Assembly: GCF_051903065.1 (NCBI RefSeq)
Contig: NZ_CP178438.1
Direction: 5' to 3' (one strand)
DNA from: Escherichia coli
Lineage (GTDB): Bacteria > Pseudomonadota > Gammaproteobacteria > Enterobacterales > Enterobacteriaceae
DNA length: 64,000 nt
The position numbers are program-made. Numbering within the stretch: position 1 is the first letter of the stretch; each line of letters starts with the position of its first letter. Positions 6,001 to 9,000 of this stretch are shown piece by piece.

Positions 6001-9000
6001 TTGAAGGAAAAATCCGACTCAATGAGTCTCTGGCTTGTAAGCTTGAGGAGTTATTCAACGTATCGACAGACTTCTGGATCAAGCGCGAAGTCGCTTATCG
6101 CCAGCAAATTGGATACCTCGAGAAAGTGAATAATGATTGGCTCGAATCATTGCCTGTACGTGATATGATGGAGTTTGGTTGGATCCCCAAAACTACAACT
6201 CGGGAAAGTAAATTCCAGCACTGCCTATCGTTTTTCGGAATAAATTCCGTCAATGATTTTTTTTATAAAATTCAGTCAGATGCTCCTTTGGTCGCTTTTC
6301 GTAAATCTCTTAATCTGGCAACCGAGCCTATGGCCGATTTGGTGTGGCTGACTAGGGCTGCACAACTTACCTCAAACCAAAACTGTGCTGTATGGGATAA
6401 AGAGGGGCTGATAGCATTGTTGCCAGAACTGCGCAAAGCTACAAATGAACCCGACATGAGGATTTTTATCCCTTACATTCGCGACCTTCTCGCCACTGCT
6501 GGAGTTTCTCTCGTTGTGTTGCCAACGCCAAAGGGATGTCGGGCAAGTGGTGCTACCTGCTTTTTTACACCAGATCGCGCAACCCTAGTCATGAGTTTCC
6601 GTTATCTGACCGATGACCATTTTTGGTTTACGCTGTTTCATGAGATTGGGCATCTCATCTTGCATGAAGCTGTCCGAGTTCGCGTAGAAGGTAAAGATAG
6701 TCTTTCGTCGGAAGAGGAAAAGGAAGCAGATAAATTTGCCGTTGATGTTCTTATCCCAGAAGAATACCGGCAGCAACTTAGTCGCTATGGTGTCCGGCAT
6801 TGGAAAGAGATCATCCGGTTAGCTAGGAAAATGGGGGTATCCAAAGGGATCGTACTGGGATATTTGCAGCATGAAGGTAATATACCTTTTTCTCACCTTA
6901 ATCGGTTTAAAGTGAGATTCCGTAAAGAAGATATCGTCTGATATCAGCCGCCGAAATAGACATAACGGTCAGGTGATTTCTGCCAGTTGCACAACGCATC
7001 TTCAATAACCTGCATTCTCAAGTAGGGTGCAGGAATAATTGCCGCAAGGTCAGCTAGTTTTTCATTCAATACGTCTATTGTGTCACCAGCAGTCCGGCTA
7101 TTGCTGAAAAGTAGCCGGCTTCCTTGAAGGGGCCCGGTTGCTCCATTCAGAAAAGCATGACCCGGCTCTACATCCAGAAGTCCCGTTTTCTTGAGCATAG
7201 TTAGGTAATCAAATTTTGCGGTTCGTCCAAATGAGATCACGGCATTTAGCCCTGAATACAATAGTTCGAATAAAGATTCTGGTGAAGATGAAAAGCTCTT
7301 GGCCTCTGCAAACCTAGCCTCATGACTGTGTGTAGCACCAATGAATCCGATGTAAGAGCGAAAAACCGCAGGTATTGAACGACGAGAGTGATATTTCTTC
7401 GTTTCATATTTCCGATGGTTACCATATTGTCTTAGGCTACTGTTAGCTGTCAACTCATCAGAGACGCTGGCGAACCATTGTTCAAAAGCAGCAAAGTCAT
7501 CAGTTATCGTATCCCATGTCCACGTTTGTGTACCGAGTCCACTGTATATATCTCGACACAAAATCCAGCCGGTTTTGTTACTCTTGCCGAAATGTGTGGC
7601 AAGGAAAACCAGCCAGCAGGCTTCATCGTAATTGTTGTCACGAAGATAAAGGCAGGCAGCGCGGAGAGGATCAAAAACATCAGAATTCGGCTCTTTTCGT
7701 AACGGAGTCATATAATCGGTCCGTAATGCAAGAGTTTCCACATAGCGTATACGACGTATACTGTCGATAATCTGACAGGCTAAAACATCAAAGCAGGCAG
7801 GAGAACTTAGGCCATTTAGGTTGTGTTCATTGCGGCTAAAATTTTGCAAATTACTAACCAGCTGACTGATTTGATTATGTCTTTTCATTGTAGTCTTCCT
7901 TCAAAAATAAACCGATATTCCTGATTTTTCATTGCAGCCAACTCTTGGAAGGCTAGTCCTTTGTGGTTGGGTGTATGTGAACGTAACAAAAAGTGGATTT
8001 TTAATATACGCAATAAATCCTTCCAGTAGTCATTCAAGGAAGTAGTGTCAATATCAAATTCCTTATTCTCTCGAAGAGCTTTTTCTGCCTCAAGCAGGGG
8101 TAAGATATCATCTAAGGAATGCATTTCAGGCATCGATCCCATGACTGGTAGGGTGCTCATGAACCCCTCTTTCTGAAGAGCCTTCACTTTTTCTAAATCA
8201 TTTTTATAGAGATGTAGGCTGGATACAAAGTGATGATAGTGACCCAATTCGCATCCTATCAAGCGGGCAACTAATTCCTGTAGCATCGTGAACGCAAATA
8301 CATCATGAGGCAGCCCCATAAAGGCATCGTTAGAACGCATACAAACAAATAGATGCAGCTCTTCACATCTGACAATAAACTGCATAGATATTGTACAAGG
8401 AATATCTACGTATTCTCGCTGTTCAGTTTTTGAGGGCACCAAGTCTGAGGCATCGAAAAGCTGTATTACTGCACGTCTGGTAGGTTTTTTCTCCTGCAAA
8501 AGGTTGATAACATTTTTTAGCTGATTATATAAACCACGCATATTAAACAACCGTGGCCCGTAACCACCATGTATTTTCCCATCTGACTCAGCGGATTCAG
8601 CGTAACGTGGTATGAAGTGTTTTATAAACTCAAGATCGTTCTGAGCTGAGAGATACCACAGAAATTCACCTAAGCAACTAATTAGTTTTCCTCGGGATTC
8701 TGTTCTACTTATTCTTCGGCGGGGGTCGGTAAGGACAAGATAGGCACCAAGAATCTCTAGAGTTGATCCTTTTGTAGGATCGTTACTGAGTCCATCCGCT
8801 AGGATAGCTTGATGAACATCGTTTATCAGATCGTCAACACACTCAGCCGTTACCAAAAGAGTCATTTTCTACCTTTTCCTGTATGGTAGTAACTAATCAT
8901 TACCACCTGTATGGCATATAGTCAATATAGTATCAATATCAACATGGTTCACAGGGTAAGTAAGACTTGATCTTACCCAGCAATAGTGGACACGCGGCTA

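Follow-up and report, generated by a model that had tools for sequence, protein, structure and literature searches.

A horizontally mobile four-gene cassette of Escherichia coli couples a predicted dCMP 5-hydroxymethylase to an aGPT-Pplase clade 3 protein and is a tentative candidate for antiphage defence

We analysed a stretch of 64,000 nucleotides (nt) from the Escherichia coli contig NZ_CP178438.1 (assembly GCF_051903065.1), referred to below as the window, and focused on a cassette of about 3.4 kb within it. The window is an E. coli chromosomal island and was 100% identical to NZ_CP033635.1. The cassette is a horizontally mobile unit of four genes, in which a synthase-like gene followed by an aGPT-Pplase clade 3 gene is convergent with a HigB-like open reading frame (ORF) followed by a peptidase gene. 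Its GC content was 43%, compared to 50% for the window. On the minus strand, a thymidylate-synthase-family enzyme of 326 amino acids (aa; WP_000174035.1), a predicted deoxycytidine monophosphate (dCMP) 5-hydroxymethylase, was encoded at 7885..8865, and its partner, an aGPT-Pplase clade 3 protein of 314 aa (WP_000820616.1; aGPT3 below), was encoded at 6944..7888. Both ORFs were found as the initial annotation, made from the sequence without database searches, had placed them. The minus-strand ATGA at 7885-7888, in which the stop codon of the synthase gene overlaps the start codon of aGPT3, was also borne out by reading the sequence and indicated translational coupling. On the plus strand, a small HigB-like ORF of 108 aa with a TTG start (5536..5862), recognised by its conserved position, overlapped the start of a gene for a 360-aa fusion of a HigA-like helix-turn-helix (HTH) domain and an ImmA/IrrE (M78) zinc peptidase (5859..6941; Pfam and PADLOC). 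The small ORF is missing from the RefSeq annotation of this E. coli variant, and its homologue in E. coli ET450 is annotated as the coding sequence WP_032755313.1. The peptidase and aGPT3 genes are convergent and their stop codons lie 2 nt apart. This meant that the two convergent transcripts must overlap.

The conservation of this arrangement was followed by scanning 100,044 genomes, one per species, with the aGPT3 family alignment. The scan gave 183 relatives. The best 80 of the 183 loci came from Proteobacteria, Bacteroidota, Planctomycetes, Acidobacteria, Chloroflexi, Actinobacteria and Verrucomicrobia. Linkage was counted over 87 loci from at least seven phyla, and neighbour families were defined by all-against-all clustering of every flanking ORF in 81 non-redundant loci. 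The synthase-like gene was directly upstream of aGPT3 on the same strand in 85 of the 87 loci, the exceptions being a contig edge and one truncation. The gene for an HTH-M78 protein of about 360 aa was tail to tail with aGPT3, also in 85/87, and both exceptions were contig ends. The gap between these two genes was usually -19 to +11 nt. Just four families were present in a majority of the 81 loci, namely aGPT3 (81), the peptidase (80), the synthase-like protein (79) and an ORF of about 110 aa at the position of the small ORF (65). The linkage was reciprocal, and three peptidase homologues with 39-42% identity were each found beside aGPT3 and a synthase-like gene. The initial annotation had described a two-gene operon and proposed a survey of the co-occurrence of that pair. 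The survey showed a four-gene module, and what had been listed as a neighbouring toxin-antitoxin (TA)-like pair belonged to the same module in 85/87 loci. Since the cassette has four genes, the stretch 6900-8970 that had been suggested for cloning omits two conserved components.

The 326-aa protein matched the Pfam family Thymidylat_synt (PF00303) at 6e-25 and carried the motifs IPC (Cys157), MRSND, GLPHD and SLHLY. The best NCBIfam ThyA model gave 81 bits against an equivalog cutoff of 327. The closest solved structure was MilA, the cytidine monophosphate (CMP) 5-hydroxymethylase of mildiomycin biosynthesis, with an E-value of 1.6e-41 over residues 26-304, and the best ThyA gave 1.4e-18. Residues were counted in 80 distinct homologues from the related loci, which were aligned using MAFFT with E. 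coli ThyA and MilA. Positions are quoted in E. coli ThyA numbering unless the numbering of the window protein is given. Cys146, Tyr94, Arg166, Ser167, Asp169, His207 and Tyr209 were invariant. The profile match and this invariant catalytic core placed the protein in the thymidylate synthase family, as had been claimed from its active-site motifs. Asn177 was replaced by Asp in 80/80 homologues. Asp188 of the window protein fell in this column both in the HMMER alignments to ThyA and MilA and in the MAFFT alignment, so the cytosine-type Asp that had been proposed for the window protein held in two alignments and was a property of the whole family. Leu143 was replaced by Asp or Glu in 72/80. Position 126 was Arg in 68/80, including the E. 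coli protein, and Lys in 12/80. The folate-contacting Trp residues were lost, with Trp80 replaced by Tyr and Trp83 variable.

These residues were compared with published determinants. Specificity for cytosine comes from Asp at 177, and that for deoxyribose from Ser167 together with Arg126; MilA has Ala176 and Lys133 there, and its A176S/K133R double mutant flips the preference to dCMP (PMC5175136). An acidic residue at 143 is the mark of a hydroxymethylase, and Asp169Asn is the mark of a 5-hydroxy-dCMP synthase (PMC13326640). In the window enzyme, the catalytic Cys is Cys157, Asp188 is at position 177, Asp154 at 143, Ser178 at 167, Arg130 at 126, and Asp180 corresponds to a retained Asp169. 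All five determinants of a dCMP 5-hydroxymethylase were therefore present, and the published rules predict this activity for the 326-aa enzyme. Judged by its sequence alone, dCMP methylase activity may be another compatible outcome. The 5-hydroxy-dCMP synthases of the RB69/DLP3 type were not matched, as Asp169 was kept in 80/80 homologues. The CMP hydroxymethylases of the MilA/BcmA type did not fit either, with Ser instead of Ala in 80/80 and Arg instead of Lys in 68/80. The phage relatives of the synthase-like protein all showed less than 34% identity.

The partner had been described as a protein with no recognisable motif. Instead, it belonged to the aGPT-Pplase/amino-acid:DNA-transferase superfamily. 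It matched Pfam aGPT-Pplase3 (PF18746) at 5.5e-90 over residues 34-313, with the profile aligned over its full length, and also ADDT ('amino acid:DNA transferase', PF18724) at 1.1e-58. Pfam alone identified the family; searches with PADLOC, NCBIfam and PHROGs were uninformative for this protein. The profile search that had been proposed for both proteins thus named a family for each of them. Newer RefSeq records carry the name aGPT-Pplase3 for the partner. Among 1.84 billion proteins, clade 3 comprised 765 clusters at 50% identity, and at least 183 genomes of different species carried it. With 96 sequences as input, AlphaFold2 gave a very confident model (pLDDT 96.9, pTM 0.93) that was all-helical with a helix-hairpin-helix (HhH) fold, and the hairpin was FGRTAKFDY. 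Clade 3 showed the invariant C-terminal motif Q-V-[LM]-E-D-A-L-C-N-W-Q-K, which contains Glu296, Asp297 and Cys300 in the pattern Glu-Asp-x-x-Cys. Comparisons of clade 3 with M6 gp51 and gp55 by hhalign gave low probabilities; only the motif register was used, and in it the clade 3 motif was in register with VETVLC of M6 gp51. Because of the low hhalign probability, the link to clade 2 was drawn from Pfam, the fold and the motif together.

In PaMx11 gp46, a clade 2 enzyme, the attack on base C6 comes from Cys247, and a metal is bound at O4 through Glu243 and Thr244 (PMC11472151). In M6 gp51, neither the corresponding Cys nor the corresponding Glu is dispensable (PMC8989533). The characterised aGPT-Pplase enzymes all act on DNA, and the closest structure to the partner binds double-stranded DNA with a flipped base. 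As expected of an amino-acid:DNA transferase, the partner combined an HhH-like two-bundle fold with a Cys that has a Glu close by. The kinase that accompanies such transferases was not matched, with no 5-hydroxymethyldeoxyuridine (5-hmdU) DNA kinase among the recurrent neighbours in the 81 loci. Clade 3 differs from clade 2 in having Asp at the metal-binding Thr. We infer that this Thr-to-Asp change beside the catalytic Glu parallels the Asn-to-Asp change of the synthase, and it may direct the enzyme to cytosine N4 instead of thymine O4. At the place of the catalytic Asp of HhH-GPD glycosylases, about 20 residues past the hairpin, clade 3 had no conserved acidic residue. This suggested that the partner is a transferase rather than a glycosylase, and the MilB-like N-glycosidase suggested in the initial annotation lost its basis. 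A phage origin of the partner was rejected, as tblastn gave no match to it in 50,697 phage genomes.

The 360-aa protein matched Peptidase_M78 at 2.4e-10 and HTH_3 at 0.0015 in Pfam, with HEIGH at residue 261. Its match to the PADLOC profile PD-Lambda-2_B was 8.7e-30 over residues 15-341, which is near full length. It also matched capP (1.7e-10) and RmrA. A HigA-like HTH fused to a peptidase is the architecture of component B of PD-lambda-2, and the 360-aa protein has this architecture. PD-lambda-2 is a validated abortive-infection system in which component A is HigB-like, component B is toxic alone and neutralised by A, and component C is needed for defence (PMC9519451). The small ORF was less clear by profile. 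Pfam HigB-like_toxin matched 2-3 of 47 members with a marginal best value of 2.3e-4; neither a PADLOC match (the PD-Lambda-2_A profile was not reached) nor a PDB profile match was obtained. No recurrent gene corresponding to component C, which is related to P4 antitoxin, was found in the 81 loci.

An optional third gene was found between the synthase-like gene and aGPT3, always at that place, in 33-34 of the 87 loci (about 40%). It encodes a protein of about 266 aa (for example positions 9204-10001 of locus L021). The confident model of this family had the fold of the uracil-DNA glycosylase (UDG) superfamily with a MUG/TDG-like GLNPS motif. The superfamily features were all present, namely the fold, the Asn of motif 1 (GxNPx) and the His of motif 2. 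The family gave no Pfam, NCBIfam, PHROG or PADLOC match. From the model, this protein is a candidate new UDG family that may act on C5-modified pyrimidines. The gene was gained and lost repeatedly. It is absent from the window and from the E. coli type of the cassette.

The distribution of the cassette in E. coli was that of an accessory element. It was present in 231 of 5,426 complete E. coli genomes (4%), lying within integrative defence islands, in all cases on the chromosome and nearly clonal with at least 99% identity. A second E. coli variant, in ET450, showed 79.5% identity. Carriage on plasmids was rejected, as megablast gave no match in 72,556 plasmids. In ET450 and Providencia, the cassette was beside a tyrosine integrase at a tRNA-Leu/pepA-lptFG site, together with a type I restriction-modification (R-M) locus and DUF4268. 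The defence-type neighbours across loci included type I R-M, dGTPase, SIR2, TIR, Shedu SduA_C, HipA, DUF6988 and Mrr, and a Septu-like AAA_15+HNH pair. In a metagenomic genome (L097:673-7963), the cassette and the Septu-like pair appeared to be beside or within a split methylmalonyl-CoA mutase gene (673-4080 and 7286-7963), which suggests that the two came in together as a small defence islet. The defence-island setting described in the initial annotation was consistent with these results, and the neighbours it had named in the window (a type I R-M locus, a MazG-like gene, the TA-like pair and a dGTPase-family gene) were all present.

Based on the above results, we tentatively propose that the cassette is an inducible antiphage defence that acts via hypermodification of cytosine nucleotides or DNA, a reading to which we give somewhat less than an even chance. 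In this mechanism, the synthase-like enzyme would convert dCMP and methylene-tetrahydrofolate to 5-hydroxymethyl-dCMP, as its active-site residues suggest. By the precedent of the phage amino-acid:DNA transferases, Cys300 of aGPT3 would then attack C6 of 5-hydroxymethylcytosine with the assistance of Glu296 and Asp297. An exocyclic methylene would form, and aGPT3 would couple a nucleophile to give a hypermodified deoxycytidine. As a consequence, dCMP would be diverted from dCTP and dTTP synthesis, or replicating DNA would be loaded with bulky C5 adducts, or both. Phage replication would be blocked, and the cell might be sacrificed. From homology to PD-lambda-2 A/B, ImmA and CapP, the HigB-like/HTH-peptidase pair would act as trigger or toxic co-effector and would restrain the enzymes until infection. 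We lean towards action of aGPT3 on DNA rather than on a mononucleotide; the DNA level is favoured by relatives that act on DNA, by the HhH hairpin and by the UDG-fold glycosylase of some loci. The mononucleotide level is favoured by the absence of any kinase and by the action of DUF2419/QNG1 on a free nucleotide. The initial annotation had already considered a 5-modified dCMP or DNA modification module; its general direction agreed with the residue evidence, and its MilB-like partner did not.

We consider a more specific form of this proposal possible but doubtful. It holds that bacterial immunity is obtained by a self-made hypermodified deoxycytidine, with a dCMP hydroxymethylase feeding what would be the first cytosine-directed and kinase-independent member of the amino-acid:DNA-transferase superfamily. 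In a 'prodrug' version, the host could not phosphorylate 5-hydroxymethyl-dCMP, and only phages with a broad-specificity deoxynucleoside monophosphate (dNMP) kinase would incorporate it, after which aGPT3 would act with or without the UDG-fold glycosylase. If this were true, bacteria would wield the base-hypermodification chemistry of phages as an immune weapon, and the activity of aGPT-Pplase clade 3 would be defined. A C5 transferase that is directed to cytosine and needs no kinase would be new to enzymology and might be of use in DNA labelling. Through its tight tie to a PD-lambda-2-like HigB/HTH-peptidase pair, the cassette could also reveal what that TA-like module senses.

Several points weighed against the defence proposal. 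The first was the kinase. Clade 2 transferases depend on a phosphate leaving group, T4-type pathways on a dNMP kinase, and no kinase was found among the recurrent neighbours in the 81 non-redundant of the 87 loci. This leaves no route from 5-hydroxymethyl-dCMP to the triphosphate and no phosphate leaving group for a clade 2-like transfer, so the second step of the mechanism needs chemistry without precedent. The peptidase pair may serve addiction and nothing else. Some loci were in housekeeping surroundings, such as that of V. cholerae by MSHA pilus genes. No PADLOC model matched either enzyme, and the literature search gave no experimental work on the cassette or its members. In favour of the proposal, the cassette synthase has been noticed before. 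The very same protein, WP_000174035.1, is entered by DefensePredictor under the label 'predicted novel defense gene' (log-odds 7.63). The DefensePredictor paper (Science 2026) highlighted an aGPT-Pplase system as predicted and unvalidated, and it validated DS-4, which includes a synthase-family enzyme of the hydroxymethylase type. A machine-learning prediction of defence is not validation. WP_000174035.1 was not seen among the DefensePredictor screened units, and 'thymidylate' occurred once in the supplementary file, for DS-4. The statement of the initial annotation that the pair is not a described antiphage system held in the sense that PADLOC is empty for both enzymes, although the DefensePredictor prediction predates it. 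A literature search for thymidylate synthase, Peptidase_M78 and defence gave nothing, and the paper that defines the aGPT-Pplase clades was outside its reach. Iyer et al. 2013 (NAR) reportedly defined these clades, and the clade 3 neighbourhood is perhaps described there or in Burroughs et al. 2015.

Among the alternatives, hypermodification of self DNA survived best, although it is unlikely. Here, the modified cytosine would mark host or island DNA, in the manner of phages, against nucleases, or it would form the modifying arm of a restriction-like system whose restricting arm, where present, is the UDG-fold protein. The action of the characterised aGPT-Pplases on DNA and the flipped base held in the closest structure are consistent with it. 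The HhH fold of the partner, which is that of DNA glycosylases, and the UDG-superfamily protein between the two enzymes also point in this direction. However, a modified triphosphate would need a dNMP kinase, as T4 and the in vivo assays do (PMC13326640), and none was recurrent. The glycosylase has come and gone repeatedly, with the E. coli type lacking it, and neither the 50,697 phage genomes nor the 72,556 plasmids contained a homologue of the partner. Inducible use also suits a TA-like or stress-type regulator better than constitutive use does.

We regard it as quite improbable that defence or addiction lies wholly in the HigB-like/HTH-peptidase pair and that the enzymes are non-immune cargo, for nucleotide salvage or for detoxification of modified-cytosine nucleotides set free from phage or damaged DNA. 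The close match of the peptidase to PD-Lambda-2_B and the toxicity of PD-lambda-2 B alone, which A neutralises, agree with this explanation, and islands are commonly stabilised by TA modules. However, the near-absolute reciprocal linkage of the pair to the enzymes across phyla is unlike swappable cargo. PD-lambda-2 needs component C for defence, and in the cassette this accessory place is taken by the enzymes. The biosynthetic active site of the synthase was also intact.

A biosynthetic role of the MilA/MilB or bacimethrin type appeared still more improbable. In this case, 5-hydroxymethyl-(d)CMP would be formed and an N-glycosidase partner would free 5-hydroxymethylcytosine for an antimetabolite. 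The comparison with MilA made in the initial annotation was apt, as MilA was the closest solved structure, but the ribose-type Ala/Lys pair is replaced by the deoxy-type Ser167/Arg126. The place of the HhH-GPD Asp had no conserved acid and the transferase Glu and Cys were invariant, so the partner was not MilB-like. No further biosynthetic or export genes were found among the recurrent neighbours in the 81 loci, and the flanks resembled defence islands and not biosynthetic clusters. Finally, an ordinary ThyA paralogue beside an unrelated gene has practically no chance of being correct, as its RefSeq name 'thymidylate synthase' is outweighed by a score far below cutoffs of at least 327, by the Asp at 177, the acidic residue at 143 and the lost Trp80 and Trp83, and by a gene found in just 4% of E. 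coli genomes in the constant company of the same three partners.

The cassette was compared with known systems. It resembles the first steps of phage thymidine hypermodification, in which a deoxyuridine monophosphate hydroxymethylase, a 5-hmdU DNA kinase (5-HMUDK) and an aGPT-Pplase of clade 2 act together (M6, ViI, PaMx11). However, the cassette is of the cytosine type and not the uracil type, its aGPT-Pplase belongs to clade 3 and not clade 2, and 5-HMUDK or any other recurrent kinase is lacking. It is also bacterial and chromosomal and tied to a TA-like pair, and its partner is without a phage homologue. The Asp at 177 and the acidic residue at 143 are common to the window enzyme, T4 gp42 and MilA. 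The deoxy-type Ser167/Arg126 is like that of T4 gp42, in contrast to Ala176/Lys133 of MilA. Compared to T4, the cassette has neither a dNMP kinase nor a glucosyltransferase, and compared to MilB, its partner is an HhH-fold transferase-like protein. The dCTP deaminase, antiphage dGTPase and Brig1-type defences are alike in concept, as they attack the deoxynucleotide supply or modified bases. Brig1 is a member of the UDG superfamily. The core enzymes of these nucleotide-depletion and glycosylase defences are unrelated in sequence to those of the cassette, for which modification is predicted and not hydrolysis or deamination.

Two further systems of E. coli share single components with the cassette. 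For the three-gene PD-lambda-2 (Vassallo et al. 2022), the cassette peptidase matches B, and the overlapping HigB-like ORF precedes it as in A/B. However, component C is lacking and a convergent two-enzyme operon is in the accessory position. DS-4 (DefensePredictor, Science 2026) is an accessory defence locus, validated in E. coli, that contains a synthase-family enzyme, a dNMP kinase, a 5-hmdU DNA kinase, TIR and NMAD. The DS-4 enzyme was 29% identical to the window enzyme and has the hydroxymethylase-type Asp at 143. In contrast to the window cassette, it keeps Asn at 177 (uracil type), and DS-4 has both kinases and TIR and no aGPT-Pplase or M78 peptidase.

The upstream region of the synthase-aGPT3 operon was then considered. 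A consensus scan gave a sigma-70-like promoter candidate, TTGACT-18 nt-AATGAT, on the minus strand at 8896..8925, and the number of sites in the scan was not above that in shuffles. Although E. coli ET450 and Enterobacter diverge by about 20%, both kept the two hexamers and the GGTGGTAATGATT block. An IS3-family element was located at 8968-10224, with the ends TGATCTTACCC...GGGTAGGATCA, between the synthase promoter region and the dGTPase gene. Its end at 8968 is 102 bp upstream of the synthase start codon, and the promoter candidate (8925-8896) lies between them. Since the candidate was conserved in ET450 and Enterobacter, the element probably left the operon promoter in place, as far as the sequence indicates. 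The 3-bp flanks of the element differed (ACT and CAT), with no target-site duplication, which suggests rearrangement between copies of the insertion sequence (IS) and not a simple insertion. The ET450 variant has no IS and carries the integrase in its place. An exact 9-mer direct repeat, CCTGTATGG, at 8878-8886 and 8906-8914 with 28 bp spacing, flanked the -10 element and was the sole exact pair in the window. Neither the ET450 promoter nor that of Enterobacter conserved it, and it was rejected as an operator. By-eye inspection of the promoter gave no LexA box, and an Rfam scan of 4800-9300 gave no RNA families.

The remaining neighbours were accessory and not part of the core. A small MazG-like protein, named 'MazG-like family protein' in RefSeq and without a Pfam match, was encoded on the minus strand at 5126..5434, divergent from the small ORF. 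The gene was linked to the cassette in Enterobacter (89%) and E. coli ET450. In Providencia, an ORF of 103 aa was in its place, and a different MazG-like ORF adjoined the small ORF in five alphaproteobacterial loci. DUF4031 (PF13223; phrog_4887) was beside the cassette in about 10 loci at varying positions (e.g. L034:8839-9144 and L098:10841-11164), and a PDB search gave no solved structure matched by its sequence. A NUDIX protein gene was accessory in five loci. In Pseudomonas nicosulfuronedens (L098:13784-14035), a cassette with DUF4031, synthase, UDG-like, aGPT3 and peptidase genes adjoined a Pf-like filamentous prophage (Phage_Coat_B).

A dGTPase-family gene on the plus strand (10324-11577) was 1.5 kb from the cassette. 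It passed TIGR01353 with 316 bits (cutoff 152). With the curated model for anti-phage dGTPases it gave 284 bits, below the cutoff of 400 bits, so a defence role was not established by that model. On the other side of the cassette, a truncated ISL3-family transposase fragment on the plus strand (4284-4826) separated the type I R-M locus from the MazG-like gene. An antibiotic-resistance cluster with floR, tet(A)/tetR(A), aph(6)-Id and aph(3'')-Ib and with IS91/ISCR2 fragments occupied about 15200-21300. It was inserted a few kb from the defence genes, and a truncated papA and pap regulators were found between them.

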